Positions 13,983-45,685 are shown, counted from the stretch's first letter. The stretch is 64,000 bases of DNA from a virus (IMGVR_UViG_3300036798_000504:1325-65324); one strand, 5' to 3'. The notes: generated by a model from the letters alone, not told the origin. A program made the numbers and translations.

Positions 13983-14246
13983 ATGAAAATCGAGGACATC
14001 CGCGACCTGCTGCAGAGCGCCCTGCAGGCGCTGGAGAACCCGACGCCGGCTGCGCTCAAGCGCGCCGAACGGCTGACCGAAGACGCCAACGCGGCGATCC
14101 GCGAACTCACCGACCCGCCCGATCCTTACAAGGACATGAAGCTGCGGCCGGGGCTCGGCGGCGGCAGTTACCAACCGAACCCCGGTGACAACGGCCACCT
14201 GACCCACACGGGCCAGCCGGTTCCCAAGGAGCACCCCGATGGCTGA
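13983..14246 (+). CDS. Hypothetical protein
   Basis: SD GAGGA; G/C-ending codons. Confidence 0.7.
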   Translation: MKIEDIRDLLQSALQALENPTPAALKRAERLTEDANAAIRELTDPPDPYKDMKLRPGLGGGSYQPNPGDNGHLTHTGQPVPKEHPDG

Positions 14247-15915
14247 AGGCTCTGGCGCGGCGGCCGCCCAATCCTACCGCGAGCACATGCGCTCCAAGGC
14301 CGCCCGGCTCGGCAGCGGCGAGGACGCGGTCTCGGTGGACGCCTCCGACTACACCCCCGGCGAACCGCTCGACGCCGACGTAAAGACCGGCATGCGGCCG
14401 GTCTCCCGGCAGGCGCGCAAGCGTGGCGGCTCGGTGAAGGGCGAGCAATCGCCGCTCGGCGCGCACGCGCTGGCGCGGCCCGGCCGTCGGGCGCGCGCCG
14501 CTGGCGGCGGGGTCGGCGAGAGCTACGTCAACCGCAACGCCAAGACCGCCAACGAGGATCGCGCGGGCAAGAAGCACGACCTCGGCCTGAAGAGCGGCGG
14601 CCGCGCGGCGCGCGCGGTGGGCGGCGTCGGCGGCGCGCCGGCGATCACCCTCGGCGGCCGGGCCCGGCCGCAGCGCAAGATGGGTTTCAGCGCCCCCGGC
14701 GGCCGCTTCGGGCTCAGCCGCCACTCCACCGACGCGCTGCACTCGATGGCCGAGAGCGAGACCGATCCGACCCGGCTCGGCCACCTGTTCGACGAGATCG
14801 ACCGCCGCTCGGGCCGCGCCCGCGGCGGCCGCGCGCGCCGCGCCAACGGCGGGCGGACGAACGAGGAAGGCTACGTGCCACGCAAGGAGCGCGCCGGTGG
14901 TGCGCACACCCGCGACCTCACCAAGCGCTCGGCCTCGGCCGCCGAGGTCGACGTGCCGAAGCGGATCGTGCGCGCCTCCGGTGGCCGCGTCGGCCGGCAG
15001 GCCGGCGGCCCGCTGTCGACGCCGCTGGCCGCCGGCATGGGCGGCCAGGGCCGGCTCGGCTTCAACTTCGGGCCGCAGGCCTCGATGGGGTCGAAGCTCG
15101 GCCTGCGCGACGGCGGCCGCGCCAAGGCGCACGAGCGCTACGGCCACGGGCCAAGCTGCAGTTGCCCTTCCTGCCGCAAGGGCAAGGCGGGCGGCGGCGG
15201 CCTCGGCGCGCTCGGCGGTCTGCTGCCGATGGCGATCCAGGAGTTCTCGGGCGGCGACGGCGACGACAACAAGCCGGCCCCCTACTCGCCCGGGAGCGGC
15301 AAGAAGGCCGGCGGTCGCGCCGGGCGCGCCAACGGCGGCCCCGCGCCGGGTCCGGCCGAGAACGAGGGTGCGGTCGGCGCGCCGAGCTTCAAGCACCGCG
15401 CCCCGAAGGGCGAGAACTCGATCCGCGCCCGCACCCTGGCCAGCGCCGAAGGGCGCAAGGACGGCGGCAGCGTCGAGAAGAAGGTGCTGGCGGCGCACCA
15501 CGCCGAGCACGATGCGATGTCGAAGGGCCGCGCCCGCGGCGGTCGCTCGGGCAAGGGCAAGATGAGCGTCAACATCGTCATCGCCCCCGGCGGCGCCAAC
15601 CCGCAGGCGGCGGGTCCGCCCGGCGCCAACCCGGCGCTGGCGATCAAGCCGCCGCCGGCCATGCCGATGCCGATGCCGGGTGGCGCGCCTGCCCCAGGCG
15701 CCATGCCGATGCCGATCCCGATGCCCGGCGCTGCGGGTCCGCCTGGACCGCCCGGCATGCCGCCGCCGGGCATGATGGGACCGCGCGCCCGCGGCGGCCG
15801 CGCGCCGCGCATCCACGGCGAGCCGGAAGCCGGCGCCGGGTCGGGCCTGGGACGGCTGCAGAAGACCGCGGCCTACGGCCACCGCTCGCGCGAGGGGTCG
15901 GGTCTGAGGAAGTAG
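14239..15915 (+). CDS. Basic low-complexity head-module protein with many xxGG motifs
   Basis: 558 aa; more than 12 copies of RKRGG/RARGG/KSGG/RDGG-type motifs; Pro/Met-rich C-terminus; lies between portal and scaffold. Confidence 0.8.
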   Translation: MAEGSGAAAAQSYREHMRSKAARLGSGEDAVSVDASDYTPGEPLDADVKTGMRPVSRQARKRGGSVKGEQSPLGAHALARPGRRARAAGGGVGESYVNRNAKTANEDRAGKKHDLGLKSGGRAARAVGGVGGAPAITLGGRARPQRKMGFSAPGGRFGLSRHSTDALHSMAESETDPTRLGHLFDEIDRRSGRARGGRARRANGGRTNEEGYVPRKERAGGAHTRDLTKRSASAAEVDVPKRIVRASGGRVGRQAGGPLSTPLAAGMGGQGRLGFNFGPQASMGSKLGLRDGGRAKAHERYGHGPSCSCPSCRKGKAGGGGLGALGGLLPMAIQEFSGGDGDDNKPAPYSPGSGKKAGGRAGRANGGPAPGPAENEGAVGAPSFKHRAPKGENSIRARTLASAEGRKDGGSVEKKVLAAHHAEHDAMSKGRARGGRSGKGKMSVNIVIAPGGANPQAAGPPGANPALAIKPPPAMPMPMPGGAPAPGAMPMPIPMPGAAGPPGPPGMPPPGMMGPRARGGRAPRIHGEPEAGAGSGLGRLQKTAAYGHRSREGSGLRK

Positions 15916-15916
15916 G

Positions 15917-16111
15917 ATGGCGTCGAGCGCGCAGTTCGAAGCGGCGCTGAAGGAGATCGTCGAGGCTGAGCGCGATCAAGCCGCCGCCGACCTCGCCGAC
16001 GGCTCGGCCGGCGACTACGCCGAGTACCGCGAGCAGGTCGGTTTCATCCGCGCCCTTGACCAGTTCGGCGAGTGGTGTGCTGAGGTGGCGAGGAAGCTGG
16101 AAGAGCGATAA
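15917..16111 (+). CDS. Small conserved head-module protein
   Basis: DYAEYREQVGFIRAL motif, recalled from genes upstream of phage groES. Confidence 0.75.
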   Translation: MASSAQFEAALKEIVEAERDQAAADLADGSAGDYAEYREQVGFIRALDQFGEWCAEVARKLEER

Positions 16112-16115
16112 CGCC

Positions 16116-16505
16116 ATGCCCGCCACGCAGTTCGCGCATGAGATCGATCCTAAGGTGAAGTTGCTGGAGGCGGTCGGGTCCGTCTCCGAGGTGGATATCT
16201 TCCACAATCAGGTGCTCTGCGCGGTCTACATCGCCCCGGAAAAGACCAGGGGTGGCATCATCCGGCCCCAGGCGAACATCGACGAGGACAAGTACCAGGG
16301 CAAGGTCGGTCTCGTCCTGAAGTGCGGCCCGCGCGCCTTCGTCAGCGACACCAAGTGGCAGTGGCCGGACGACATGGGCGAGGGCGACTGGGTGTTCTAC
16401 CGGGTCAGCGACACCATCGGCGTCACCATCAACGGGCAGGCCTGCCGCATCCTCGACGATGTCGACGTGAAGGGCCGGCTGCCGCAGCCGGATGGGGTGT
16501 GGTGA
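16116..16505 (+). CDS. groES: GroES-like co-chaperonin
   Basis: Mobile-loop EKTRGGIIRP, GKVGLVLKCGP, GDWVFY, CRILDDVDV. Confidence 0.85.
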   Translation: MPATQFAHEIDPKVKLLEAVGSVSEVDIFHNQVLCAVYIAPEKTRGGIIRPQANIDEDKYQGKVGLVLKCGPRAFVSDTKWQWPDDMGEGDWVFYRVSDTIGVTINGQACRILDDVDVKGRLPQPDGVW

Positions 16506-16720
16506 TGGACGAAAGCTACCTCGCGCAGTTCACCGAGAGCGTGCTGGTCACGCTGATGGAGGCCAAGGACCGCAACGGCCTGAAGATCAGGCTGTCGCCG
16601 GACCAGCAGATCACCATCCTGGCCAGCGCCATCACCTCGGTGATGAACAGCCGCACCGATCTGGCGCTTTTCCGGCCTATAAGCCTCGGGCCGGGCGGGG
16701 AAATCCGCTTCGGAGAGTGA
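16505..16720 (+). CDS. Hypothetical protein
   Basis: TGATG coupled start at 16505. Confidence 0.65.
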   Translation: MDESYLAQFTESVLVTLMEAKDRNGLKIRLSPDQQITILASAITSVMNSRTDLALFRPISLGPGGEIRFGE

Positions 16721-16723
16721 GTT

Positions 16724-17731
16724 ATGGCGCGCGAACCCACCAACTCGGTCGATCTGGCGCTCTCGGAACTCGAAAACGAGCCGCTGCCGACCCACACCCG
16801 CGATCATCCGCCCCCGGAAGACGAAATCGAGGTCGATTACGAGGGCGACACGCCCGAAACGGCCGAAAAACCCGCGTCAGAGCCCGAAAAACGCGAAATC
16901 GACGCCGACGAGGGCATCGATACCCTGCGCGCGCGCCTGCAGGCCTCGGATTTGGCCCGCCGGCAGGCCGAAGACCGCGCCAACGCCGCCGAACGGGCCC
17001 GCGCCGACGCCGCCGGCAACACCCAGGAGGCCAACGTCAGCTTCCTGACCTCGGCGCTCGACAGCGTGCGCCAGGGGATGGGGATTCTGGAAGCGAATCT
17101 GGCGCAGGCCTATGCGGAACAGGACTTTGCCGCGGCCGCGAAGATTCAGACCGAACTGGCGCGCGCCGCGCAGCGCGAAGGCCAGATCGACGCCGGCCTG
17201 GAGCAGCTAAAGGCGATGCCGCGCGACCAGCCGCGCGCCATGCCGCGCGAGCAGGACCAAGTCGAGGCGGTCGCCAGCCAACTCACCCCCAACGCCGCCG
17301 CCTGGGTGCGCCAGCACCCCGACTACATCACCGACCCGCAGAAGAACGCGCGGTTGATGAGCGCCCACTACGACGCGATGGCCAACGGGCTGGTCGGCGA
17401 CAGCCCCGAGTACATCCGCTACGTCGAGCAGCACGTCGGGCTCGGCGGACAGCGCGCCGGCGCCAACGGCGATGGCCGGCGAGACCCTCCAGTCGAAAGG
17501 CGAGACCCCGTGGCCGAACGTCGTACCGCGCCCCCGGCCGCTCCGGTGAGCCGGCAAGGCGCCAGCCAGTCCAATCCGCAGCGCGTCACGTTGACGCGCG
17601 AGGAGCGCGAGATGGCGCGCGAGACCTTCCCCGACGAGCTTGCGAAGGACCCCACCGGGCGCAAGTCCGAGCAGGCCTACGCGCGCAACAAGCTGATCCT
17701 GCAGCGCGAAGGCCGCATGAAGGTGAACTGA
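16724..17731 (+). CDS. Capsid scaffolding protein (putative)
   Basis: Acidic N-terminus, long coiled coil, C-terminal VTLTREEREMA...YARNKL; upstream of the capsid genes. Confidence 0.75.
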   Translation: MAREPTNSVDLALSELENEPLPTHTRDHPPPEDEIEVDYEGDTPETAEKPASEPEKREIDADEGIDTLRARLQASDLARRQAEDRANAAERARADAAGNTQEANVSFLTSALDSVRQGMGILEANLAQAYAEQDFAAAAKIQTELARAAQREGQIDAGLEQLKAMPRDQPRAMPREQDQVEAVASQLTPNAAAWVRQHPDYITDPQKNARLMSAHYDAMANGLVGDSPEYIRYVEQHVGLGGQRAGANGDGRRDPPVERRDPVAERRTAPPAAPVSRQGASQSNPQRVTLTREEREMARETFPDELAKDPTGRKSEQAYARNKLILQREGRMKVN

Positions 17732-17732
17732 G

Positions 17733-18482
17733 ATGGTCAGCCACAACCCGCGCTCTGCCAGCTACCGCTCGCGCCCCCGCAAGCCGCGCGCCCATGATGC
17801 GCCGGATGTCGAGGCGCTGATGAACGGCACCACGACGGCGAAGCCGCCGCCGATTGTTTCACGTGAAACAAAAGCTTCACCACAAACCGCGCGCGAAGGG
17901 GCGGGGGACGACGTTGGGTCTGCGGGGTCCGCCGCAGCGTTCGCCCGCCCCGATCCGCGCGGTGAGGTGCGACCCGAGATGCGCGCCAGCGAGGCGCCGC
18001 ACGAGATGACCTCGCGCGAGCGGGCCGAGCGGCGCACCGCCGAGATCATGGGGCACCTCGACGAGAACCTCGACGAGGGCGTCGACGAACTCTTCATCGA
18101 GGACGCGATGGTCCCCGACGGCTGGACCTACGAGTGGAAGCGCCAGACCGTCTACGGCAAGTCCGACCCGGCCTACGATACCAAGCTGGCCAGGACCGGC
18201 TGGGAGACGGTGCCGGCGACCCGCCACCCGGCGATGATGCCGAAGGGCTCGCGCGGCGAGATCACCCGCGACGGGCTGGTGCTGATGGAGCGGCCGAAGG
18301 CGATCACCGACCGGGTCAAGCAGATCATGTACCGCAAGGCCAAGGGCGCGGTGGCGCTGAAAGAGCAGCAACTCAACGATAACCCCGAGGGCACCTTCGC
18401 CCGCGTCGATGAGAGCGGCCGGCCCACCGCCCGGGTGCGCGTCAGCCACTCGCCGGTCGAGATTCCGGTGCCCACCGAGTGA
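17733..18482 (+). CDS. Conserved hypothetical head-module protein
   Basis: PDGWTYEWKR...GWETVPATRHP...GLVLMERP motif recalled from related podophages. Confidence 0.75.
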   Translation: MVSHNPRSASYRSRPRKPRAHDAPDVEALMNGTTTAKPPPIVSRETKASPQTAREGAGDDVGSAGSAAAFARPDPRGEVRPEMRASEAPHEMTSRERAERRTAEIMGHLDENLDEGVDELFIEDAMVPDGWTYEWKRQTVYGKSDPAYDTKLARTGWETVPATRHPAMMPKGSRGEITRDGLVLMERPKAITDRVKQIMYRKAKGAVALKEQQLNDNPEGTFARVDESGRPTARVRVSHSPVEIPVPTE

Positions 18483-18598
18483 AGTGGTTCGCGCTCTGGA
18501 TCGGGCTGTCGTTCGTCTTCGGCGCGATCTGGGCGGCGTGGCGCTGGCCGAACCACCACGACGACCCTGACGACCCCGACCTGGAGGGGCTCAGTTGA
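18479..18598 (+). CDS. 39-aa single-TM protein MKWFALWIGLSFVFGAIWAAWRWPNHHDDPDDPDLEGLS
   Basis: GTG 18479 overlaps the upstream TGA; its TGA overlaps the next TTG start; not in the ORF track. Confidence 0.7.
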   Translation: MKWFALWIGLSFVFGAIWAAWRWPNHHDDPDDPDLEGLS

Positions 18599-18879
18599 GC
18601 GCCACCGAAACCATCGTTGAGGTCCGCCTTCCCTTCGGAGCTACTCGACTGGAGGACATGGACCCGGTCGCCCTGATCGAGGCCACCCACTACGCGCGCG
18701 GTCGCGACAGCCGCGGCCTCATCGTGAACGGCTCGGTGGTGGTGCTGCGCATCCATCGCGGCGATCAGGTAGCGTCGATGCAGTGGCCCGCCACGAACTT
18801 CAAGCAGGCGATGGCCGACCTTGGCGCGGTCGCTGATCGCGAGCCGCGCGACGAGGACGCGCCGGATTTGCGGACGTGA
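18595..18879 (+). CDS. Hypothetical protein
   Basis: TTG start with SD GGAGGGG; GTGA overlap with the next gene. Confidence 0.65.
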   Translation: MSATETIVEVRLPFGATRLEDMDPVALIEATHYARGRDSRGLIVNGSVVVLRIHRGDQVASMQWPATNFKQAMADLGAVADREPRDEDAPDLRT

Positions 18880-19247
18880 ACCGCTGGCTGCTCAGCATCG
18901 CCGAGTGGCTCTACGTCGCGGCGGTGGCGCGCTACCTGCACCGCCCCGATCTGGAGACGCTGCTGCCGCCATCCGAGGTGCGCCGCCTCGCGTGGCGCGA
19001 GGTCGAGGCGATCCCCACTTCGATCCTCGCCCACTTCGACTACCAGGACCGCGAACAGCGCATCCTCAGCGACCGCCTGACGCGCCGCTTCGACCTCGGC
19101 ATGGCGCTGAACGAGGCCGCCGCGCGGGCGATCACCGAGAAGCAGACCAGCCGGGTGGCGATGCCGGTCGGCTACCCGACCGACAAGCAGAAGATGGCGC
19201 TGAAACTGCAGGAAGAGACGCTGCGCGAGCGCATCGGCAAGTCGTAG
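18876..19247 (+). CDS. Hypothetical protein
   Basis: Coupled ORF with G/C-ending codons. Confidence 0.7.
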   Translation: MNRWLLSIAEWLYVAAVARYLHRPDLETLLPPSEVRRLAWREVEAIPTSILAHFDYQDREQRILSDRLTRRFDLGMALNEAAARAITEKQTSRVAMPVGYPTDKQKMALKLQEETLRERIGKS

Positions 19248-19248
19248 G

Positions 19249-19986: not shown

Positions 19987-19995
19987 GGGCGGGTC

Positions 19996-20910: not shown

Positions 20911-20919
20911 GAGATACTT

Positions 20920-21495: not shown

Positions 21496-21771
21496 ATGAA
21501 GACGATTGCGAGGCGCCGCGGCGGCAAGACCGACGACAAGGGCCGGGCGGCGATCTCCAGGCACCACGAGACGGACGGCGACGGTATGGCCGACCTCGAC
21601 CACGCCAAGCACGTCGGGCCGGTGCGTGGTGAGCACGGCAAGCACACCAGCGCGCGCAGCCCTCGCAAGGGCGGCGGCCACGTCGCCGGCTCGGTCGGCG
21701 CCGACCGGCGTCCGTTCTCGTCAGCCGCCCACGGCACCGAGCCGAAGGGCCGCCACACGATGGACGACTGA
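21496..21771 (+). CDS. Small basic protein with RRGG/RKGG motifs
   Basis: RRRGGKT, RKGGGHV; His/Arg-rich. Confidence 0.7.
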   Translation: MKTIARRRGGKTDDKGRAAISRHHETDGDGMADLDHAKHVGPVRGEHGKHTSARSPRKGGGHVAGSVGADRRPFSSAAHGTEPKGRHTMDD

Positions 21772-34708: not shown

Positions 34709-35109
34709 CCTTCCAGGAGAACCGCAACATCCCGTCGAGCCACCCGGGCCACGGCCAGGGCCCGGCGGGCGCGAGCCTCAGCGACATCCTGACGGCCGTG
34801 AAGAACGTCGCCGTCAACATCGCCAACCTCGGGCAGACCATGCTGGCGATCAACGGTCAGCAGACAGCGCCTGCGCTGGCCGCCGCGGCGCTGGTGAAGC
34901 AGGGCGCCGGCCGGGTGGCGTTCGTCAACGTCACCATCGCCGGCGCCGCGCCGGGCTCAGTCATCGACGCCAACAGCGTCGGCGCGACGAGCCCGGTGCT
35001 CTACGTGATCCCCAACGTGGTCGGCTCGACCTTCGTGAATCTGCCCTACAGCTTCGGGCTGGTGGTGATCCCCGGGACCGGCCAGACCGTGACCGTGAGC
35101 TACTCCTGA
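34705..35109 (+). CDS. Hypothetical virion protein
   Basis: ATGA/TGATG coupled. Confidence 0.7.
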   Translation: MTFQENRNIPSSHPGHGQGPAGASLSDILTAVKNVAVNIANLGQTMLAINGQQTAPALAAAALVKQGAGRVAFVNVTIAGAAPGSVIDANSVGATSPVLYVIPNVVGSTFVNLPYSFGLVVIPGTGQTVTVSYS

Positions 35110-38100
35110 TGCCGCTCGCGCATGGCTCCAGCGAGAAGACGATCAGCCGGAACATCTCCGAGATGCGGGCGAGCGGCCACCCGCGCGAGCAGGCCATCGC
35201 CGCGGCCCTGCGGACGGCGCGCGAGAGCCACGCCTGGGGCGGTCGCATCGCCCTGGCCAAGGGCGGCTTCCCGGACCCGGAGTTCGGCCAGGGCAGCGGC
35301 TACACGTCGGGCGCCATCCGCTCGCTGACCAAGCTGCCCATCATGGAGGCGCCCACGCCGCACGCGCCCGGGTCGCGCAACGTCGGCGAGGTCGGCAAGG
35401 AGTTGGTGGGCAAAGGACAGCGGTTCTGGAAGCGGCGCGGCGTCGCCAGCGGCAAGATCACCGCCGAGACCGCGACCCCCCGGCACAACGACGCGCTCGC
35501 CGAGGCGCTCGCCGACGAGACCGAGCACGCGCTCGCCGGCCGCGGCAACGCCGCCAACTGGTACTCGGAGAAGTTCGAAGAGGCCAAGCGCGTGGCGGCG
35601 CTCACCCACCCGGAGATCATGCACGACCCGCATGCGCTGAGCGCCTGGGCGGCGGCGCTGGCGATCACCAGCCAGGGCGAGAAGGTGCATCGGAACGCCG
35701 AACTGGCCGACCAGATGTATCAGCGCTTCAAGGACAAGGGCGGCCGCTTCGCGATGGACGACGACGACATGCCGTCCGCCGACAAGAAGAAGATCGCCTC
35801 CAAGAACGTCACCCCGATGGTGTCCAACTTCAGGAAGTACGACGCCCTCGTCGACTACCACGCCAAGAATCGCGACGACGGGAACGGCCACGCCGGCGCC
35901 TACGAGTTCCTGAACAAGCCGATGAAGGGTCGCGACCTCGCCGCGGCCGGCTTCAAGGGCGGCCAACTCGAAGCGACCGGCTTCAAGAAACCGAGCGGCA
36001 TCACGATGGACGCCGACACCCACGGCTCGGCGATCTTCGGCGGCAAGATCGGCGGCGGCTTCTACCAGAACCTGATGGGTAACTATCATCCGGTGACCCA
36101 AGACCTGTGGTTCATGCGGACCTTCGGGCGGCTGACCGGCACCCTGATGGACACGGTGAAGACCGAGAAGGGCCGCCAGCAGGCCTACGACCGGGTCCGG
36201 GATGCGCTGGACAAGCTGCGCCTCAACGAGCCGGGCCCGACCGACAACGAGGGGCTGGCCGAGCATGCGAAGAAGTATGCCAGCCAGCACGAGCGCGACT
36301 TCGCCAAATACCGGGCCAAGTACGACAGCGGCGAGCTTACCAAGGACGAGATTCACCACGCCTCAGAGCGGCTGGTGAACATGCTGCATGGCGTCAACGA
36401 GATGCCGGGCGGCGGTCGCGACCGGCAGTGGCGCGCCGCCATCGTCAACAAGGCGCGACATATTCTGCAAAAGCGCGGTCACCACATCACCAACGCAGAC
36501 CTGCAGGCTACCATATGGTATCCAGAGAAAGACCTCTGGAAGCACATGGGTTCGACCGGAGGGTCCTCGGGTTCCGAGGGCAACAACGTCGACTACTCGC
36601 AGGCGCAGCAGCGCATCGCACGTCAACGAGGACACTCGGATGCCCACATCGAACAGGCCCTCGGACGGCCCCTCGATCACGACGAGAAGTTCGCACCGCC
36701 TGCCCAAGCGCAACCCAACGATCCACGAGATGCTCTCGGAGGACCCGGACCCGCCGGGGGAAACCGTGATGTCCCGGGAGGAAATCCGGCGGGCGGTGGA
36801 GCGCTCGGCCCACCTGATCAGCCCGCAGCACCACCGCCACCGCCGCAGCTAACCGGCGGCCTCGCCGCTGGCGGCCGCGCCGGCTTCCAGGAGGGCGGCG
36901 AGGTCGGGCCCCAGGGCTTCTACAGCCAGGGCGCCAGGGCGGCGATGGCGCTGCCGCAGGCCAAGGGCACGCCGCAGCAGATGATGGCCTCGCTGAAGGG
37001 CGTGAAGCCCGACGAGATGAAGTGGTCGGGCGTGCAGGACGCCTTCGCGGGCCAAAAGAGCGTCACCAAGGATCAGATCGCCCAGCACTTCCGGCAGGCG
37101 CAGCCGCAGATCGATGAGACGCTGCTCGCCGACCGTTACGGCTACAACGGTATGCCCACGGAGTACCGCCAATACACGATCCCCGGTGGCCGCAACTACC
37201 GCGAACTACTGCTGCACCTGCCTGAAGCGGGCCGCGGAGACCCGCTGCCGGACAAGCAGGCGTGGGCCGAGCACGGCCCTGCCAATCGAGCGCTGACGGA
37301 ACGGGAGCAGGCGGTTCGGGGCGCCTTTGCCAACGTCAAGCATGCGACCGATCCGCGGTTGCCGGGATATGCGGATGAGTTCGAAGCGATTGGGCGCGAG
37401 CGCAAGGCGCTGGCCGAGCGGATGGTCGCTGACACCAAGGCCAGGGTCCCGCCCTGGATGCGCCGGTCGCGCACCTACAACTCATCCCACTGGCACGTGC
37501 CCAACGTCCTGGCCCACCTACGCATGTCGGATCGCCACGGCCAGAACGGCGAGAAGCTGCTGCACCTTGAAGAACTGCAGAGCGACTGGGGCCAGGAGGC
37601 CAGGACGGAGGGGCTTCACGACCCGGCCAAAGCCGAGGCGGCGAAGGCGCGTTTGAACGAGTTAGAGCGTGAGCGGTCGTCGCTCCGTCATCGCATCTAC
37701 CAACCAGATACGACCCCCGAGGAGGATAAGCGATGGTCAGACCTCGGCTGGGAGCTTGATGACGCCGTCGACGCAGCCGACCGCGCCACGCAAGGTCGTC
37801 CGAACGCGCCCTACATCGGCAAGACCGAGGGCTGGACCGACCTCGGCCTGAAGCGCCTGCTGCACGAAGCGGCGCAGGGCGGCTACCACAAGGTGATGTG
37901 GACGCCCGGCCAGGATCAGGCCGACAGGTACGGCCTCGAAAAGCACCTCAAAGCCATCGATCTGCGGGAAACTATGGGTGGCCCACGCCTGGAAGTGCAT
38001 CAGCACAGCGGCCGCCGGCAGGTCTACTTCCCTGAAAACGACGAAGAGATCGGTCGCCTCCTCGGCAAGGAGACGGCTCAAAAGCTGCTGGCGGGCCGCA

Positions 38101-38894
38101 ACGAGAGCGGCGATTCGACCCTTGAGGGCCTCGACCTGAAGACCGGCGGCGAGGGGATGAAGGGCTACTACGACAACATCCTGCCCAAGCGGCTGCTGGC
38201 GCTGGCCAGGGAGCACGACCCGCAGGCGTCGCTCAGCGGGCAGTATCTCGATCCCGAAGGCATGGGCGACAAGGCGTCGGAGTACGCCACCAAGCCGTTC
38301 CCGGCGCTCACCATCACGCCGCAGATGCGCGCGAGCATCCTGAAGAACGGCTTCAAGGCCTACGCCTTCGGCGGCCGAGCGGCGCGCGCCGAGGGCGGCG
38401 GCTTCCCGCACGCCACCAAGCCGCTGCTGTTCCACTCCAACCTGCACCACCACCTGCACGTGGGGCCCATCCACTCGCACGTCTCGGGCCGCACCGATCA
38501 CCTGCCGATGCACGTGCCGTCGGGCTCCTACGTGCTGCCGGCCGACGTGGTCAGCGCCCACGGCGAGGGCAACACGATGGCCGGCTTTAAGGTCATGCAC
38601 CGCCTCTTCGGTGGTGCGCCCTACGGCGGCCACGGCGGCCCCTACGGCCAGGGCGGCGGTCCCTACGGGGAGGCGCTGCAGAACGAATCGCGCGGCGGCC
38701 GGGCGGTTGGCGACGACCGCGGCGTGCCCATCGTGGCGGCGGGCGGCGAGTACGTGCTCTCGCCCGGCCAAGTGCGCGCGGTCGGCAGGGGTGACCCCGA
38801 GGTCGGCTGCAAGGTGCTCGACGAGTTCGTGAAGCGCAGCCGGGCCAAGAACATAAAGACGCTGCAGAAACTGCCGGGGCCAGCGAAGGACTGA
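35109..38894 (+). CDS. Large multidomain (polyvalent) internal virion protein
   Basis: N-terminal SSEKTISRNISE domain; glycosylase-like block (NWY...AITSQ...VTQDLWFMR...LQATIW); GGRNYRELL...EELQSDW block; C-terminal GRTDHLP...GEYV domain; blocks separated by AxGG motifs. Confidence 0.8.
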   Translation: MPLAHGSSEKTISRNISEMRASGHPREQAIAAALRTARESHAWGGRIALAKGGFPDPEFGQGSGYTSGAIRSLTKLPIMEAPTPHAPGSRNVGEVGKELVGKGQRFWKRRGVASGKITAETATPRHNDALAEALADETEHALAGRGNAANWYSEKFEEAKRVAALTHPEIMHDPHALSAWAAALAITSQGEKVHRNAELADQMYQRFKDKGGRFAMDDDDMPSADKKKIASKNVTPMVSNFRKYDALVDYHAKNRDDGNGHAGAYEFLNKPMKGRDLAAAGFKGGQLEATGFKKPSGITMDADTHGSAIFGGKIGGGFYQNLMGNYHPVTQDLWFMRTFGRLTGTLMDTVKTEKGRQQAYDRVRDALDKLRLNEPGPTDNEGLAEHAKKYASQHERDFAKYRAKYDSGELTKDEIHHASERLVNMLHGVNEMPGGGRDRQWRAAIVNKARHILQKRGHHITNADLQATIWYPEKDLWKHMGSTGGSSGSEGNNVDYSQAQQRIARQRGHSDAHIEQALGRPLDHDEKFAPPAQAQPNDPRDALGGPGPAGGNRDVPGGNPAGGGALGPPDQPAAPPPPPQLTGGLAAGGRAGFQEGGEVGPQGFYSQGARAAMALPQAKGTPQQMMASLKGVKPDEMKWSGVQDAFAGQKSVTKDQIAQHFRQAQPQIDETLLADRYGYNGMPTEYRQYTIPGGRNYRELLLHLPEAGRGDPLPDKQAWAEHGPANRALTEREQAVRGAFANVKHATDPRLPGYADEFEAIGRERKALAERMVADTKARVPPWMRRSRTYNSSHWHVPNVLAHLRMSDRHGQNGEKLLHLEELQSDWGQEARTEGLHDPAKAEAAKARLNELERERSSLRHRIYQPDTTPEEDKRWSDLGWELDDAVDAADRATQGRPNAPYIGKTEGWTDLGLKRLLHEAAQGGYHKVMWTPGQDQADRYGLEKHLKAIDLRETMGGPRLEVHQHSGRRQVYFPENDEEIGRLLGKETAQKLLAGRNESGDSTLEGLDLKTGGEGMKGYYDNILPKRLLALAREHDPQASLSGQYLDPEGMGDKASEYATKPFPALTITPQMRASILKNGFKAYAFGGRAARAEGGGFPHATKPLLFHSNLHHHLHVGPIHSHVSGRTDHLPMHVPSGSYVLPADVVSAHGEGNTMAGFKVMHRLFGGAPYGGHGGPYGQGGGPYGEALQNESRGGRAVGDDRGVPIVAAGGEYVLSPGQVRAVGRGDPEVGCKVLDEFVKRSRAKNIKTLQKLPGPAKD

Positions 38895-38898
38895 TCCG

Positions 38899-39456
38899 AT
38901 GGCGGACGACAGCCACGAGCTTCAGGACGGCGTGGCGCTCACCGCCATCAGCCACCCGGATCAGCGCGACCCGCATCCGCACGTGCGCACCGGCACGCCG
39001 GCCGAGGTCGACGAGGTGATGAAGCTGGCGATCATGGGGTGCGAAGAGAATCAGTTCGTCCCCCACAACCCGATCAAGGTGCTGCAGGACGTGTGGGCCG
39101 CGCTCAACCTCGACAAAGGCATCGTCGGGGTGATCGGGCCGCCCGGCGGCCAGCTTGAGGGCGCTGTCCTCTTGCGCATCGGTCAGGTTTGGTACAGCGA
39201 TGCGCCTCACATCGAGGAGAGGGCGATCTTCGTGCATCCCGCCTTCCGCGGCGCGCGCGGGGGTCGGGCCGCGCGTCTCGCGGAGTTCTCGATGGACCTC
39301 GCCGACAAGCTCGGGATGCCGCTCTCCATAGGGGTCCTGTCGGACCACCGGACAGCCGCCAAGGTCCGGCTCTACTCGCGCATCATGGGCAAGCCCTCGG
39401 GCGCATACTGGATATACTGGCCCGGTAGCCGCGCCGTGCAAGCCGAGACCGGCTGA
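38899..39456 (+). CDS. GNAT-fold acetyltransferase-like protein
   Basis: IEERAIFVHPAFRGARGGRAARL motif A; positioned like P22 gp14 before the ejection proteins. Confidence 0.7.
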   Translation: MADDSHELQDGVALTAISHPDQRDPHPHVRTGTPAEVDEVMKLAIMGCEENQFVPHNPIKVLQDVWAALNLDKGIVGVIGPPGGQLEGAVLLRIGQVWYSDAPHIEERAIFVHPAFRGARGGRAARLAEFSMDLADKLGMPLSIGVLSDHRTAAKVRLYSRIMGKPSGAYWIYWPGSRAVQAETG

Positions 39457-42400
39457 TGGGCGGTAAAACTTCTACGAGTACTTCTCAGGTTGCGATACCA
39501 CCGGAGGTACTCGCCCGCTACAACAGCGTGAACGCGCAGGCCCAGCAGACCGCGGGCACGCCGTTCCAGCAGTATTCGACCGATCCCTCGGCCTTCGTCG
39601 CCCCGATCAACCCCACCCAGCAGGCGGGGATCGAGCAGACGATGGGCGCCGCCAACATGGCGCAGCCCTACTACAACGCCGCCACCGGGTTCGCGATGGC
39701 CGGCTCCCAGGCGGTCAACCCCTCTGCGCTGAACACCCCGGCCTACATGAACCCGTACCTCAACACGGTGCTGGGCTCGACGGCGGCGCTGATCAACCAG
39801 TCGAACGCCCAGGCGATGTCCGGCCAGACCGGCAACGCGATGCAGCAGGGGTACTTCGGCGGCGACCGCTCGGGGATCGCCAGCGCGGTGCTGCAGGGCC
39901 AGCAGAACCTCGCCGCCGGCCAGACCTACTCAGGCATCGCCTCCGACGCCTACAACCAAGCGATGGCCGCTGCGCAGCAGCAGCAGGGCGTCGGGCTCTC
40001 GGCCGAGCAGGCGAACCGCGCCGCGCTGCAGCAGACCGGCGAGACGCTGGCTGGCTTCGGCGGCGCGGCGCAAGGCGCCGCCCTCTCGGGCGCGCAGGCC
40101 GAACTGGGGGCCGGCACCACGGCGCAGCAGACCCAGCAGGCCGGCGACACTGCACTGTATAACCAGTTCCTTCAACAGCAAAGCTACCCGTTCCAGGTGG
40201 CTCAGTTCTTGGCCAATATTGCCGAAGGTACTGGCGCTCTCTCTGGTTCTACTACAACTACTCAACAACCACAGTCGATCTTCTCGGACGAGCGGCTCAA
40301 GGAGGACATGGTCCCGGTCGGGGTCGGCTTCGACGGGGCCAACATCTACCGCTTCCGCTACCGCGGCGATCCGACCACCCGCATCGGCTTCAGCGCCCAG
40401 GAGATGGCGCGGCTGCACCCCGAAGCCGTCCACACGACGCCCTCGGGCTTCCTGGCGGTCGACTACGGGCGCGCGACCGACGCCGCGGCCGGCTTCGCGC
40501 GGGCGGCCAACGACAACTACGGCGACGAGCCCGAGCGCCGCCGCATGGCGGCTGGCGGTCGCGCCGGCTTCCAGGGCGGCGGCGGCATGCCGCTCTCCAT
40601 GCAGCCCGGCATCTCGGGGGCCGCGAACCCCTACGACATGGCGATGATCCTGCAGGCGCAGCAGCAGGGCTACGCGCCGTTCTCCCAGGCCGGGCTCTAC
40701 GGCGGCCAGTCGAGTGGTGGGCCCTACGGCGGCGTGCAGGGCCACGTGCCGGCGGCGAACCTGCCGGTCGGCCACCTGCAGGTCGCCAGCCCGCCGCCGG
40801 CCCAGCAGAGCAGCCTATCCAGCGACCTGAAGAGCGTGGCGTCTCTCGCCGACGACGCCGAGGGTCTGAAGAGCGACTACCACCTCGCCCACGAGGGCTA
40901 CGACAAGCTCCGGGGCTTCGTCGGCGGCGGTGGAGATGGAGATGGACAGATGACCGGACCCCCCAACGCCCGGGGCGGGCGGATCGGGCGCGCACCCGGC
41001 GGCCTGACCGCGGCGGACTACGCCGCCCAGGCGCGCCAACAGGCGGCCATATCGAGGATTCGCGCGCTCGGCGCCCAGGCGCACGCGCACATCGCGGCGC
41101 GCAACGCCGCCGCCCAACGCAACGGCGGCATCGACTGGAGCGGCATCAACCAGGGGCTCGACCGCTTCGCCGGCAACATGTCGGGCGGCCTGAGTAACTG
41201 GGCCGGCCATCCGATGAACGCGCCCGATCCCCGCGCCGCCGCCGGCAACGCGGCCGTGGGCAGCGTGTGGCACGGCCTGGATCACTACCTGGGCAACGTC
41301 GCCGACACGCTGTCAGGAGGCGCCAATAGTTGGGTCGACCACCCGATGTGGGGCCCTGGCCAGCAGGGCGCCGAGGCGGGCCTCGGCGTCGGCCGTGCTG
41401 CGGCGGCGCAGATCGGAGCCGCCAGGGCAGCCGCGATCCACCACCACACGCAGCAGGCCCAGGCGCATGCCGCGGTGGCACAGCAACTTGCAGCGCCGAC
41501 CGCCTCGGCGCCCGGCGCGGCCTCGCCGAGCCTCGCCAGCGCCACCGGCCTGCCGAGCAATAGGGCGCCGGTCACGCCAATCGACATCGGCGACGTGTCC
41601 AACCTGCAGCCCGGCTTCGCGCCCGCCAACATGCACGCCTACAACCCCAACATCTTCCAGCGCTTCGGCAACTGGGTCGGGGACGAGCTACACGGCGCTG
41701 GCCAAGCGCTGGCCCAGCCCGGCCAGACGCGCGCGATGGTTCAGGACGCCCGCAACCTCGACACCGCGCCGGGCGCCATGAGCGAGGCGTTCCACCCGCA
41801 GGCCAACGCGCAGGTGGGCCCGGTGATGCAGAGCGAGGCCTTCCAGGATAGCCGGCCGGCGGTTGCGGCGCCGTCGGACCTCGTGCAGGCGGCGCCGATC
41901 TCAAGCGAGGCCTTCCAGCCGCGGGAACATCCCCCAGACCTTGCCGCGGCGATGGACGCCAATCCGCAACTGGCGGCGGCGCGGGGTGGCTTCGCACGCG
42001 CCGCCCGGCAGGCGGGCGGCGACATCTCCAGCCCGATGAACGACGACCCCTACAAGCCGCAGGGGGCGGGCCTGAACATCCCCACCTCGGAGACGCAGCA
42101 CCCGCAACTGGCCGTCGCCAAGCCGCCCGGCCAGCAAGACAGCGGTCTCAGCAGCGCCCTCGGGGACGCCGCCAGCATCGCTAAGATCGCTGCGCTGTTC
42201 GCAGCGCGTGGAGGCCGCATCGGCCGAGACGGCGGCGGGCCTGTCACCGAGCCTGCCGCCGATGATGACACCGCATCGGTGACACCGAAGACCCCGCTGC
42301 ACGACGCCGCCCAGACCCCGGCAGCGGCAGCGGCCGACGATGCTACGACCCCGGAGGCCCCGCCGCCGAAGCAACCCGGCTTCGGCGAGGCCGGGCAGCC

Positions 42401-43781
42401 TCCTGAAGGCCATCAAGGCTTCCTGCCCAGCCTGTTCCACGGGGTCGAGAAGCTCGGGCAAGGGCTGGCCGGCGCGGCCGGCTACGAGGGCGGCGGCAAG
42501 TGGAACCGCGACCAACTGATGCCACTGCTGTCGGCCATCGGCGCCGCCGGCTCAGTGCCGACCGTCCACCCGTTCGTGGCGCTGGCCGCCGGGCTCGGCG
42601 GCTACGGCAAAGCCTACATGCAGCAGCAGCAGGCCGAGGCGGGGCTGAACCTGACCCAAGCGCAAGCGACGCGCGAGCAGCAGCAGGCCATCCCCGAATC
42701 GATCCGCCAGTACACGGGCATCGCGGACGGTCCCGCCATGACGCGCGACGGCCGTTTCGTCGACAAGAGCCGCACCTTCACGACGGGCGACGGCAAGGTG
42801 CATCACTACATCACCGCCGACGAGATGCTGGGGATGGGCGGCCAAGGTGGGGCCGGTGGCCAGACCGGCACGGCAGGCGCGACGATGCAGACCCAGCAGG
42901 GCGGCGTCGGCGGCGCCGGGGCGCCGGCTCAGCCAGTGTCGGCCGATTACTCGGGCGGCGGGCACCCGCGCTACACCCTCGGACCCTCCCAGCAGGAGAT
43001 CGCGCGCGCCGAAGAGCGGTACGGTGTCGACCCGAACGCCAGCGGCATCTCGAATCGCGTCCATCGGCAGATGGGCAACGTCCAGGTAACCGACGACGAG
43101 ATCGCCGCTGCCGGCAAGGTCGCCGACCAGTACGACGGCACGCTGAACGACGCCTCCAGCACGCAGCGCGCCCTGCTCGACAACGTGGCGCAGATTCAGA
43201 AGCTGCCCGAGAGCGGGCCGGGTGCCGTCGGCCCTGGCCAGGAGGAGCGTCAACTGGCGCTGTCGTCCTACAACATGATGCTGCGGATGTTCGGCCTGCA
43301 GGGCGACCCGTCCATCGACGACAACACGGCGACGACGCAAATCCTGCAGAAGCTCAGCGCCTTGCAGGGCGCTGCGAAGGCCAACCAGTTCGGGCAGCAC
43401 GCCGCGTCCATCGCGAACCAGCTTCAGGGCGTCATGCCGAGCGGCCACATGCAGAAGCCGGCCGCCTACAACCTCCTCAGCCAGATGCTGGTCGCCAACC
43501 AGCAGGACCGCGATTTCGCCAACTACCGAGGGCAATACCAGCGCCTGGGGGTCGGCGACTTCCAGTCGCTGGAAGCCTTCCACCGCGACTTCGACCCGAT
43601 CTACGCGCGCGAGAACAAGCAGTTGCAGTCGATGATGGCGCGCGGCTCCAAGGGCGGCCCGAGCATCTTCGAAGTGCTGCAGAACCGGCCCCAGGACATC
43701 CAGCGGTTCGAACAGGGCTGGACTGACGCGGGCGGCACGCATCACCAGGGCTTCGGCTACCTCGGGCGGTATTTGCAGTGA
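39456..43781 (+). CDS. DNA ejection (pilot) protein with an internal peptidase S74 chaperone domain
   Basis: MGGKTSTSTSQ N-terminus, YMNPY, Q/A/G-rich helices; SDERLKEDM...IYRFRY...GFSAQE...AVDY at about 40284-40470. Confidence 0.8.
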   Translation: MGGKTSTSTSQVAIPPEVLARYNSVNAQAQQTAGTPFQQYSTDPSAFVAPINPTQQAGIEQTMGAANMAQPYYNAATGFAMAGSQAVNPSALNTPAYMNPYLNTVLGSTAALINQSNAQAMSGQTGNAMQQGYFGGDRSGIASAVLQGQQNLAAGQTYSGIASDAYNQAMAAAQQQQGVGLSAEQANRAALQQTGETLAGFGGAAQGAALSGAQAELGAGTTAQQTQQAGDTALYNQFLQQQSYPFQVAQFLANIAEGTGALSGSTTTTQQPQSIFSDERLKEDMVPVGVGFDGANIYRFRYRGDPTTRIGFSAQEMARLHPEAVHTTPSGFLAVDYGRATDAAAGFARAANDNYGDEPERRRMAAGGRAGFQGGGGMPLSMQPGISGAANPYDMAMILQAQQQGYAPFSQAGLYGGQSSGGPYGGVQGHVPAANLPVGHLQVASPPPAQQSSLSSDLKSVASLADDAEGLKSDYHLAHEGYDKLRGFVGGGGDGDGQMTGPPNARGGRIGRAPGGLTAADYAAQARQQAAISRIRALGAQAHAHIAARNAAAQRNGGIDWSGINQGLDRFAGNMSGGLSNWAGHPMNAPDPRAAAGNAAVGSVWHGLDHYLGNVADTLSGGANSWVDHPMWGPGQQGAEAGLGVGRAAAAQIGAARAAAIHHHTQQAQAHAAVAQQLAAPTASAPGAASPSLASATGLPSNRAPVTPIDIGDVSNLQPGFAPANMHAYNPNIFQRFGNWVGDELHGAGQALAQPGQTRAMVQDARNLDTAPGAMSEAFHPQANAQVGPVMQSEAFQDSRPAVAAPSDLVQAAPISSEAFQPREHPPDLAAAMDANPQLAAARGGFARAARQAGGDISSPMNDDPYKPQGAGLNIPTSETQHPQLAVAKPPGQQDSGLSSALGDAASIAKIAALFAARGGRIGRDGGGPVTEPAADDDTASVTPKTPLHDAAQTPAAAAADDATTPEAPPPKQPGFGEAGQPPEGHQGFLPSLFHGVEKLGQGLAGAAGYEGGGKWNRDQLMPLLSAIGAAGSVPTVHPFVALAAGLGGYGKAYMQQQQAEAGLNLTQAQATREQQQAIPESIRQYTGIADGPAMTRDGRFVDKSRTFTTGDGKVHHYITADEMLGMGGQGGAGGQTGTAGATMQTQQGGVGGAGAPAQPVSADYSGGGHPRYTLGPSQQEIARAEERYGVDPNASGISNRVHRQMGNVQVTDDEIAAAGKVADQYDGTLNDASSTQRALLDNVAQIQKLPESGPGAVGPGQEERQLALSSYNMMLRMFGLQGDPSIDDNTATTQILQKLSALQGAAKANQFGQHAASIANQLQGVMPSGHMQKPAAYNLLSQMLVANQQDRDFANYRGQYQRLGVGDFQSLEAFHRDFDPIYARENKQLQSMMARGSKGGPSIFEVLQNRPQDIQRFEQGWTDAGGTHHQGFGYLGRYLQ

Positions 43782-45685
43782 GCGACGATCCTCTCGCTGA
43801 CGCCATCGCTGACGCGCCAAATCCTGACGCGCCGACTGCAAGCGCCGCGCCGCCGCCGGGCGGCGGGCCTCCTGGCGCGCCCGTCGGTCCTCGCGGTGGA
43901 CCTCTGCGCGGTCAGCGTCTCACGCCGCCGGCCCCAGGCCCCGGCGCGCCGGCGCCCGACCTCTCTTTCAGTGATGCGCTGGAGCAGGCGAAGCACAACC
44001 TGCTGCCGAGCGCGGCGAGCAATATCTCCAACACGATGCACGCGCTCGCCCCCTGGAACTGGGGCGAAGACCTGCAGGGTCTCGGCAACATCGGCATGGG
44101 GCTGGCGTCGAAGGCCGGGATCATCGACCAGGGCAACGCCGCCGCGCAGAAGCAGCATCAGGCAGGGGTCAACGCCATCGGCAAGATGTACGGTGACCGC
44201 TACGGTTCCTGGCAGGGTTTCAAGCGCACTCTCGCCAACGACCCGTTCGCCATCGGCTCCGACATCGCCAGCGTGGCCACGCTGCCGCTCGGCGGCGAGG
44301 GTCTGGTCTCCAAGATTCCCGACGCGACCGAGGCCATGCTGCTGGCCGGCGCCGGCGCGGCCAAGCAGGGCGCGGGCCTCAGCAACACCCTGCTCAACGC
44401 CGCGGTCCATGTCCCCGGTGCGATGCGCGCCGCGGGCAGTATCGCCAAGCCGGTCCTGCAGAGGGCGCGGTGGGCGGACCCGGCCTACGCCGCTTCGCAG
44501 GTCGCCGGAAAGACCGTCAACGTCGGCCGAAGGGTCGGCCAGATTCCGGTCGTCGGCCGCGCCGTCAAAGGCGCCATCGGGGCCGGCATCGGCCACACCG
44601 TCGGCGGCTTCCTTCCCTTCATCGGCCACACCGGCGGCACGATCATCGGCGAGCACGTCGCCGAGGGGATGCTGGGACCGGGCGGCCCGGGCTGGCTCAG
44701 CAGGGGCGTTAACGCTGGCGCGAAGACGCTGCCGGCGTGGTCGACGGTGGGCGGTGCGGAGCAGATGCCGCCCTCGGAGCAGGGCGCACCACCCGGCGGT
44801 GCGCCTGGACATGGCCCTGAAGGTGATGCGCCGCCTGGACCGGCGGCCGCGACTGGCCAGGGCGCCGGCACTGGCGACCCTCTCCTCGATGCGATCAACG
44901 ATTCCAGCCTTGGCGCTAGTGACGGCGGCGCTGCGCCGGCCGACGAATCCCCGACACCGTCGTCCGGCCTGCAGGGCGCGCCGTCAGCTACTCCGATGAG
45001 GGCGCCGCGCGGCGGCATGTTCACCGCCATCGCCAACTGGGCTCACGGGCTCGGCGCTGTCCCGGGTGAGGTCGCCACCCTGCTGCACATCGCCAAGACC
45101 GAAAGCAGCGGAAATCCAGGCGCCACGAGCCCGAGTGGCCGCTATCACGGCCTCTTCCAGTACCAGAACAGCGCCGGCCCCGAGGCGGACACCGCTCGCG
45201 CGCTGGGCGACATGCGCGCCAACTCGGCCAAGTTGGCCCGGTTGGGCGTCAACCCCGACACTGCTGCGCTCTACGTCATGCACCAGCAGGGCCCCGGCGG
45301 CGGCCCTGCGCTGCTGACGGCGCCCCCTGGCACAAACGCGGTGGATGCGCTGACGCCCGCCTACCACGGCAACCGGGCGCTGGCTCGGCAGGCCATCGCC
45401 CACAATATCGGGATCAAGGACGAGGCGCAGGCGAACGCCGCGGCCGAGAACATGACGGCGGCCGACTTCGTCAACCTCTGGCGCAAGAAGCTGGGTGGCG
45501 CGTCGTTCGCCGATGGCGGCCGGGTCGGCTACGCCGAGGGCGGCAACGTCATCGACATGACTGAAAAACTGATGCAGCGCGCAGAAGCCCATCACAAGGC
45601 GAGCCAGCAGGCCACCAAGCCCCTGCTCGGACTTTCCGATAGTACGGTGGCCCAGGCGCTCAAGGTCGCTCAGCGAGGCATCTGA
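43778..45685 (+). CDS. Ejection protein with a lytic transglycosylase (SLT-like) domain
   Basis: IAKTESSGNP (catalytic ES), GLFQY, LYVMHQQG motifs. Confidence 0.75.
   Translation: MSDDPLADAIADAPNPDAPTASAAPPPGGGPPGAPVGPRGGPLRGQRLTPPAPGPGAPAPDLSFSDALEQAKHNLLPSAASNISNTMHALAPWNWGEDLQGLGNIGMGLASKAGIIDQGNAAAQKQHQAGVNAIGKMYGDRYGSWQGFKRTLANDPFAIGSDIASVATLPLGGEGLVSKIPDATEAMLLAGAGAAKQGAGLSNTLLNAAVHVPGAMRAAGSIAKPVLQRARWADPAYAASQVAGKTVNVGRRVGQIPVVGRAVKGAIGAGIGHTVGGFLPFIGHTGGTIIGEHVAEGMLGPGGPGWLSRGVNAGAKTLPAWSTVGGAEQMPPSEQGAPPGGAPGHGPEGDAPPGPAAATGQGAGTGDPLLDAINDSSLGASDGGAAPADESPTPSSGLQGAPSATPMRAPRGGMFTAIANWAHGLGAVPGEVATLLHIAKTESSGNPGATSPSGRYHGLFQYQNSAGPEADTARALGDMRANSAKLARLGVNPDTAALYVMHQQGPGGGPALLTAPPGTNAVDALTPAYHGNRALARQAIAHNIGIKDEAQANAAAENMTAADFVNLWRKKLGGASFADGGRVGYAEGGNVIDMTEKLMQRAEAHHKASQQATKPLLGLSDSTVAQALKVAQRGI

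Follow-up and report, generated by a model that had tools for sequence, protein, structure and literature searches.

The 65,324-bp virus genome IMGVR_UViG_3300036798_000504 (IMG/VR; rated complete by CheckV) encodes a set of proteins that share a short motif with two glycine pairs. The stretch analysed here (positions 1325-65324 of the record, 64,000 nucleotides, called the window below) spans nearly the whole record, and all coordinates are counted from its first letter. Comparison with related sequences indicates that the motif marks the module boundaries of internal and ejected proteins and that it is conserved across thousands of uncultured relatives, which fits a short linear motif under strong selection. 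We tentatively read it (with a probability of about 0.4) as a joint that stays uncleaved, serving at the same time as a docking motif for internal proteins and as a junction at which cassettes are exchanged in frame. Internal and ejected proteins of mosaic build are of a kind already known; what is new is that they share a conserved junction motif, that a disordered protein carries it in a multivalent form, and that a carrier has cargo slots at fixed positions.

The glycine-pair motif and its enrichment in internal virion proteins

The first-pass annotation of the window had described a tandem di-glycine motif recurring in several virion proteins. The observation of a shared motif is confirmed, and all eight copies that it listed are in place, except that the 15-residue copy in the 1441-amino-acid (aa) protein, although real, starts one codon later than proposed (41976, not 41973). 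Sequence logos were built from 222 sites of the family of the 558-aa protein encoded next to the portal gene. They display R, K, L, F, M or Y at position -3 and K or A at -2 before the glycine pair, R or K at +1 and A, T or V at +2 after it, and a sharp peak at 8 in the spacing to the next pair; the first pair is followed by arginine in 73% of copies. These positions and the spacing peak define [R/K/F/Y/L]-[A/K]-x-G-G as the minimal unit, two of which, 8 residues apart, make up the motif as originally described (tandem form, G-G-R-[A/I/V]-[G/A]-[R/F/Y]-[A/Q]-x-G-G). The conserved span comprises ~13 residues including both pairs and lies in disordered or hinge sequence.

A six-frame scan of the window for G-G-R-x5-G-G (the strict motif) gave 16 matches, 11 of which are in the coding frames of four virion genes (14239-15915, 35109-38894, 39456-43781 and 43778-45685, encoding proteins of 558, 1261, 1441 and 635 aa); the remaining five are scattered, four of them in non-coding frames. 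Allowing lysine in place of the arginine (G-G-[RK]-x5-G-G) likewise gives 11 copies in the four proteins and one in the other genes. The four proteins contain 4, 3, 3 and 1 strict motifs, respectively, versus 0.11, 0.03, 0.03 and 0.03 expected from shuffling each protein. With glycine pairs kept as tokens during shuffling, P was <= 0.001 for three proteins and 0.065 for the 635-aa protein. Among the other 76 genes (15,400 aa) there is a single strict match, in a 467-aa early-region protein with C-x2-C pairs (56403-57806, minus strand), which we judge to be due to chance. The 8-residue form of the unit occurs 14 times in the target proteins versus 0 times in 15,309 aa of other genes, and the 5-residue unit 25 times in 3,986 aa of the targets versus 7 times in 15,309 aa elsewhere (14-fold enrichment); 24% of the glycine pairs in the targets, versus 4% elsewhere, are preceded by the 5-residue unit.

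The motif could in principle be a chance pattern, that is, codon-driven low complexity of GC-rich genes, as a genome with a G+C (GC) content of 70% favours Gly, Ala and Arg codons. The comparison of virion with non-virion genes suggested in the first-pass annotation finds the motif confined to internal or ejected virion proteins and, apart from the single early-region match, absent from GC-rich non-virion open reading frames (ORFs). As the six-frame counts, both types of shuffles and relatives with a GC content as low as 35% all contradict a compositional artefact, this explanation was dropped; its probability is negligible, and a chance origin of the motif is excluded by these controls.

Distribution among relatives

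The cultured relatives are distant, with portal proteins ~30% identical to that of the window (Pelagibacter phages HTVC027P and HTVC023P, Caulobacter phage RW, Roseobacter phage CRP-901). The closest record by portal is MW202675, a metagenome-assembled phage (57% identity), and a metagenome-assembled relative is the only one in the phage collection. We retrieved 80 loci via the portal, and five complete relatives were retrieved whole. In the 80 loci (GC content 48-70%), the gene downstream of the portal gene nearly always encodes a protein with several motif copies, and HTVC027P, with a GC content of 35%, encodes a 112-aa protein near the portal that contains two. In the five complete relatives, the strict motif is limited to the portal-adjacent protein, a small basic protein and very large internal proteins.

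One flavour of the motif, G-G-R-[V/I/M]-G-Y-A-x-G-G, was found in at least 119 IMG/VR stretches by a scan with a DNA pattern. Among the matches listed, which range in GC content from 0.35 to 0.71, 75 of the 81 examined are in frame within ORFs of 200 to 1,865 aa, and at 42 loci the flanks contain markers of the lineage, with portal identities as low as 24-33%. The motif and the 558-aa family are both absent from Brucella Tb-type phages and Sulfitobacter phage phiGT1 (which share the S74 structural protein discussed below and belong to another lineage) as well as from Caulobacter phage RW. A short-peptide BLAST search of cultured phages with the motif gave no match, and a string search of the paper library did not find the motif strings. 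In a more distant group, disordered basic proteins of ~275 aa (counted from an internal Met of a 340-aa ORF) are encoded downstream of the capsid gene (locus L134, 8676-9698); they have an aromatic motif 25 residues before the C-terminus and a unit near the N-terminus.

The motif is thus found in three settings: the disordered basic portal-adjacent protein, which has many copies; a small basic protein; and giant ejection or polyvalent proteins, where it lies at the junctions of modules. The giant proteins carry one to four copies, placed where modules end on the C-terminal side, and these include both flanks of the cargo in the carrier protein gpX (see below).

A disordered basic protein encoded next to the portal

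The 558-aa protein had been credited with more than 12 related copies of the motif, and indeed 13 are present at the level of the 5-residue unit, whereas strict tandem copies number four. Its family has at least 1,961 members, none of which has a name or a Pfam domain. In the family alignment, 8-9 glycine-pair slots are invariant or conserved to >=90%, whereas the remainder is ~20% conserved among distant members. The alignment also retains the H-x3-C-x-C-x2-C knuckle, a short hydrophobic stretch (N-[V/I]-N-I-I-I), a Pro/Met-rich region and a conserved C-terminal helix, all four of which have counterparts in the window protein. AlphaFold2, run with the family alignment, predicted disorder throughout (mean predicted local distance difference test score, pLDDT, 52), the ordered parts being the N- and C-terminal helices (3-20 and 269-279) and two very short helices. 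The knuckle resembles the small zinc knuckle of retroviral nucleocapsid proteins.

For the 91-aa protein encoded at 21496, two copies had been claimed. It contains two degenerate basic-G-G sites, just one of which fits the 5-residue unit. Its orthologues in relatives have clear tandem motifs; it is the weakly conserved member of a second small basic family. Searches of Pfam, PHROGs, NCBIfam and PDB sequences found no known family for either the 558-aa or the 91-aa protein.

The properties of the 558-aa protein bring up the possibility that the motif is a nucleic-acid-binding box of the RGG/RG type, with the protein acting as a protamine-like or nucleocapsid-like DNA condenser, and with the copies in ejection proteins tethering these to packaged DNA, so that they would leave the head together with it. 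The protein is basic, glycine-rich and disordered with a zinc-knuckle-like element, arginine usually follows the first pair, and the basic part of T7 gp7.3 contacts DNA in the channel (PMC11784390). However, although the family is rich in G, R and K, the order is G-G-R at a fixed 8-residue spacing, and the aromatic flavour (central G-Y or G-F, second pair preceded by an acidic residue) is conserved most widely even though it is not especially basic. Moreover, known podophages load their ejection proteins into the procapsid ahead of the DNA. We therefore consider a nucleic-acid-binding function of the motif improbable.

A carrier protein with inserted cargo

The first-pass annotation had placed the motifs of the 1261-aa protein between four recognisable blocks, and breakpoints of homology bear this out. 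Taken together, residues 1-45 and 1090-1261 match a ~200-aa protein of relatives (203 aa in genome G005, 193 aa in MW202675), which we call gpX; ~1,040 residues are inserted between the two parts, with motif copies at the left border, between the cargo blocks and at the right border. These homologies make the 1261-aa protein a carrier of ~200 aa that has two fixed sites for the insertion of enzyme cargo. Together with its terminal motif, block 2 is homologous to portions of portal-adjacent polyvalent proteins in MW202675 and G005, and the homology stops exactly at the motif.

The gpX family has ~3,800 members, 3,284 of ~200 aa and 484 longer forms (relatives' loci include L105, 3363-3974, minus strand, and L001, 8103-8684). 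gpX itself has no Pfam domain; such domains are found only in the inserts of the longer forms (ART-PolyVal, InPase, NUDIX, GNAT or methyltransferase), and neither gpX nor the 558-aa family has a Pfam entry, a PHROG function or an NCBIfam name. In 103 members with an insert at site 1, a glycine pair is present at the left junction in 92 and the unit at the right junction in 64, with the consensus R-x-A-[R/K]-A-x-G-G common to both junctions. In insert-free gpX, the unit closes the N-terminal hairpin in 111 of 120 proteins. In an AlphaFold2 model of gpX (pLDDT 76), the second helix of this hairpin halts at the glycine pair, so that the predicted helix terminates precisely with the unit, and the disordered or low-confidence loop that follows is insertion site 1. 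Site 2 is a disordered P-Y-G-rich loop between the two repeats of the core, where NUDIX domains are inserted in genomes G003 and G004. The core repeats resemble segments of tape measure proteins. Foldseek gave no significant match for the model, and VIA-align matched the N-terminal hairpin alone (Z about 5).

The hairpin (PHROG 2423) is also found as a free-standing protein of ~50 aa in Klebsiella and Burkholderia phages (L111, 2501-2677; L112, 1501-1656), and similar sequences are present in Pseudomonas, Ralstonia and Prochlorococcus phages. Some of these copies are located outside the virion module, and the Klebsiella copy ends in G-G.

Alternatively, the motif could have no function at the protein level and be a scar or linker kept only by in-frame recombination between coding sequences. 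Homology breakpoints coincide with the motif, and inserts are bounded by direct repeats of the unit, resembling a target duplication. The first-pass annotation had also observed that two copies (36867-36891 and 40551-40575) are identical in 24 of 25 nucleotides. The identity is real, but it stops at the motif edges, and it arises because an identical peptide is encoded at about 90% GC at third codon positions; as DNA identity ends where the shared peptide ends, we dropped recombination as its explanation. Further arguments against a mere scar are the conservation of the amino acids over 35-71% GC and deep divergence, and the 8-9 slots that the 558-aa family retains without cassettes between them. 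This explanation appears improbable.

Large ejection proteins and their polyvalent neighbours

The first 340 residues of the 1441-aa protein are homologous to a stand-alone structural protein of Tb-type and phiGT1-type phages that ends in Peptidase_S74, and the first motif is located at the fusion point after this module. In an alignment that includes two orthologues, the four motifs stand out as conserved islands, whereas the low-complexity linkers around them diverge; single copies are missing in the orthologue of one close relative, although the flanking modules are kept. PF13884 matches residues 277-326 (E value 1.7e-5, above the cut-off). Because the Ser-x4-Lys dyad is intact (S-D-E-R-L-K from residue 277), the protein is probably self-cleaved there, independently of the glycine pairs. 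The position of the S74 domain, usually C-terminal, is peculiar in that >1,100 residues follow it; this predicts a trimeric N-terminal part that would be cut from the remainder of the protein.

In the 635-aa protein, the motif is found ~55 aa before the C-terminal tail, which is conserved in all orthologues; each of them has a glycine-pair unit (the full tandem in most) ahead of a conserved tail of ~50 residues. The last ~50 residues (45545-45682) are kept in all orthologues, whereas the rest of the protein is strongly divergent.

In MW202675, three polyvalent proteins are encoded between the portal and the orthologue of the 558-aa protein (L088, 10316-17813): one of 739 aa with GNAT, M15 and ART-PolyVal domains, one of 847 aa, and one of 898 aa with InPase. 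Each has one motif copy, located between domains. The window has no polyvalent genes at this place; part of that cargo is inside gpX instead.

Genomic context

The features discussed are compiled in Table 1. The late genes, on the plus strand, include among others those for a 304-aa capsid protein, an SU10-type adaptor, fibres and three large ejection proteins. The GroES-like gene was also found in HTVC027P, Caulobacter phage RW and MW202675.

Table 1. Motif copies, motif-carrying proteins and other late genes of the window.
Feature	Position	Strand	Remark
Terminase	9189-10934	+	late gene
SU10-type portal	11469-13970	+	late gene
558-aa basic, glycine-rich, disordered protein	14239-15915	+	directly after portal
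Strict tandem motifs in 558-aa protein	14587-14625, 14815-14853, 14971-15009, 15301-15339	+	four copies
H-x3-C-x-C-x2-C knuckle in 558-aa protein	15145-15174	+	
Hydrophobic N-I-V-I-A stretch in 558-aa protein	15571	+	
GroES-like (Cpn10) gene	16056-16505	+	between 558-aa gene and scaffold candidate
Coiled-coil scaffold candidate, 335 aa	16724-17731	+	from Atlas look-up
Unnamed conserved head-module gene	17733-18482		no family
91-aa small basic protein	21496-21771	+	two degenerate basic-G-G sites
P22 gp10-like tube protein	32621-34708	+	late gene
gpX N-terminal helical hairpin (PHROG 2423)	35109-35237	+	ends in first motif copy, 35229-35267
Cargo block 1, aa 54-587	35268-36869	+	followed by motif copy 36861-36899
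Cargo block 2, aa 598-1087	36900-38369	+	weak endolysin-like PHROG hit; ends in motif copy 38361-38399
gpX conserved core, aa 1099-1261	38403-38891	+	two beta-hairpin-plus-helix repeats
GNAT 'head assembly' protein	38899-39456	+	late gene
1441-aa ejection protein	39456-43781	+	N-terminal module aa 1-340
Peptidase_S74 domain in 1441-aa protein	40284-40490	+	Ser277/Lys282 site at nucleotide 40284
Motif copies in 1441-aa protein	40545-40583, 40965-41003, 41976-42020, 42201-42239	+	
635-aa ejection protein	43778-45685	+	weak transglycosylase-like domain; motif 45506-45544

Does a protease cut at the glycine pairs?

The first-pass annotation proposed that these proteins are polyproteins. The motif would then be a proteolytic site, and a G-G-specific protease (an unrecognised phage enzyme or a host enzyme) would cut after one or both pairs, freeing cargo modules from their carriers and chopping the 558-aa protein into small basic peptides, as happens with adenovirus core proteins, the polyproteins of African swine fever virus (ASFV) or the internal proteins of T4. 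Modules end C-terminally in units and inserted cargo has them on either side, the glycine pairs are the most conserved feature, and the motif is present in all internal proteins and only in those. In T4 and the giant phages, a motif common to all internal proteins is the signature of a prohead protease site. In addition, the 1441-aa protein already appears to have one self-cleaving element (S74), and a conserved gene of the head module (17733-18482) is without assigned function. Polyvalent proteins were predicted to be processed into units (PMC5512222), and for P22 gp20, cutting by an enzyme of the host may be required (PMC8954989).

However, as the first-pass annotation had already remarked, no canonical prohead protease is detectable. 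Hidden Markov models (HMMs) for S77, S78, ClpP, C5 adenain, C48 Ulp1, C39 and MPTase-PolyVal had no match in the complete 65-kb genome (for clan CE, PF00770 and PF02902, none at E <= 1; for C39, PF03412, none), whereas control genomes did respond to them. When the head and ejection genes were scanned with Pfam, PHROGs and NCBIfam, S74 was the only peptidase, and no H-E-x-x-H motifs were found at plausible places. PDB sequence searches with the two unnamed head genes gave nothing useful. Atlas look-ups returned a scaffold-like coiled coil for 16724-17731 and no named cluster for 17733-18482; the latter has no family and no PDB relative, and each of the five complete relatives conserves its C-terminal ~150 residues at 45-74% identity. 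gpX was considered as a protease as well, a role that we judge unlikely: its core has no cysteine, its model has no protease-like fold match, and its repeats are like structural tape measure segments.

The site itself also lacks the adenain consensus (M/I/L)-x-G-G-x: at P4, two positions before the pair, A or K accounts for 77% of the 558-aa family and 80% of the IMG/VR set, and the hydrophobic or basic residue is at P5. The motif does not correspond to the double-glycine leader type either, since there is no C39 peptidase and the motifs are internal, not in N-terminal leaders. The ~13 conserved residues with two pairs exceed a typical cleavage site, copies are lost in close relatives, and no orthologue is split into separate genes at the motif among the relatives compared by homology blocks. 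Apparent gene splits at motifs in relatives turned out to lie at contig ends of circularly permuted records and are not evidence.

Taken together, cleavage at the motif is the main rival reading, possible though somewhat unlikely. We regard as unlikely its general form, in which G-G processing by a protease of an unrecognised family (encoded by 17733-18482, or a host enzyme) would operate across a very large assemblage of uncultured podophages. If true, standardised cassettes would be excised from gpX and polyvalent proteins and the 558-aa protein would be fragmented, a phage counterpart of the core maturation of adenovirus and ASFV, and a new protease family would await discovery.

A proposed joint and docking element of internal proteins

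We favour the interpretation that the motif is a conserved short linear joint of proteins that are carried in the virion and ejected, and that it stays uncleaved. The two helix-capping units may act as a double hinge, allowing each module to fold and unfold separately during passage through the narrow portal-tail channel. The basic segment could be a common recognition element for a conserved virion partner, such as the acidic portal/tail channel or the DNA end; such a shared partner would explain the limitation of the motif to internal proteins and the multivalent portal-adjacent protein. Because all cassettes end in the same peptide, this shared end may also provide an in-frame junction for moving cargo between carriers. 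The 'shared head-loading tag' which the first-pass annotation mentioned as an alternative is closer to this interpretation than cleavage is.

Several lines of evidence point to an uncleaved joint with a docking function. The limited distribution, the enrichment, and the conservation over 35-71% GC and portal identities down to ~24-33% all fit it. The glycine-pair slots are among the few near-invariant positions of the 558-aa family, which is predicted to be disordered. Loss of copies in close relatives without loss of modules would fit a redundant multivalent binder, homology breakpoints coincide with the motif, and the same cargo block with its motif is present in different carriers at different genome positions. 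In the gpX model, the helix ends at the glycine pair, before the flexible loop of the insertion site. Furthermore, the conserved span is long and paired, and the head module, which comprises a candidate coiled-coil scaffold and a capsid protein of 304 aa, looks protease-free like those of T7 and P22. As a precedent, two small ejected proteins of T7 dock through basic stretches that contain glycine, gp7.3 on the nozzle and gp6.7 on the portal barrel, with gp7.3 contacting the DNA end as well (PMC11784390); ejection proteins exit partly unfolded (PMC8954989).

Some observations weigh against a joint and docking function. The strict conservation of both glycines in each pair is what a G-G protease would demand, while a plain hinge would tolerate more change, and the position at C-terminal module ends and on both insert flanks is also expected of a polyprotein site. 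The docking partner in the virion is putative. Finally, a profile comparison detected no homology between T7 gp7.3 and the 558-aa family (probability 0.5%, 3 aligned columns), so this precedent is an analogy.

Comparison with known systems

The closest parallel in protein architecture are the polyvalent proteins (Iyer et al. 2017, PMC5512222), likewise giant mosaic late-gene products that are thought to be delivered with the DNA and for which processing into units was proposed. Relatives of the phage studied here carry ART-PolyVal, InPase, GNAT, M15 and NUDIX domains in the same proteins, and PolyVal-type domains occur in homologous carriers and neighbours (PF18760, PF18823, GNAT, M15, NUDIX). 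The 1261- and 1441-aa proteins of the window are multi-module by homology blocks, although no block matches a Pfam or NCBIfam conflict domain. In contrast to the polyvalent class, this genome lacks MPTase, the enzyme proposed for the processing, and modules are inserted into the small carrier gpX at fixed sites. The description of polyvalent proteins has no mention of glycine, linkers or a junction motif (PMC5512222).

As to viral maturation systems, the adenovirus protease cuts at (M/I/L)-x-G-G-x and ASFV pS273R at G-G-x. As here, a short G-G motif is present there in several core or internal proteins, with basic DNA-associated proteins among the carriers; unlike there, no clan CE protease gene was found, the pattern before the glycine pair is one position off, and the motif is a tandem pair. 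In T4, the internal proteins likewise share a short motif (targeting sequence and gp21 motif) in all head-packed and ejected proteins, but that signal is N-terminal and removed by an S77 protease, whereas the present motif has an internal position or follows modules on the C-terminal side, and S77/S78 profiles have no match. The C-termini of ubiquitin-like proteins (R-G-G) and viral papain-like sites (L-x-G-G) resemble the unit in that a module ends in G-G preceded by a small residue and, before this, a basic or hydrophobic one; however, no ubiquitin-like fold, deubiquitinase-like enzyme or conjugation machinery was found here. We know of no report that the T7 ejection proteins gp14-16 share a motif with gp6.7 or gp7.3. 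The latter two are small or disordered, basic, glycine-containing podophage proteins, located on the portal barrel (gp6.7) and on the nozzle and DNA end (gp7.3), and are ejected first (PMC11784390). Unlike the proteins described here, they do not have the tandem motif in the same form, and they have no detectable homology to the 558-aa family.

Significance

How podophages select the proteins that are placed in the head, and how they deliver large enzyme cargo with their DNA, is largely unknown beyond T7, P22 and T4. Here, a ten-residue, easily mutated sequence tags exactly the set of in-head and ejected proteins in thousands of environmental phages. It also tags the borders of exchangeable cassettes, among them ADP-ribosyltransferase, pyrophosphatase, NUDIX, acetyltransferase and peptidoglycan hydrolases. 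From sequence alone, the motif may be used to recognise which proteins of metagenomic phages are internal or ejected and where their domains end, and it offers a defined site for probing packaging, docking or cleavage. The natural cargo slot in a small carrier would, in turn, show where foreign domains are tolerated.

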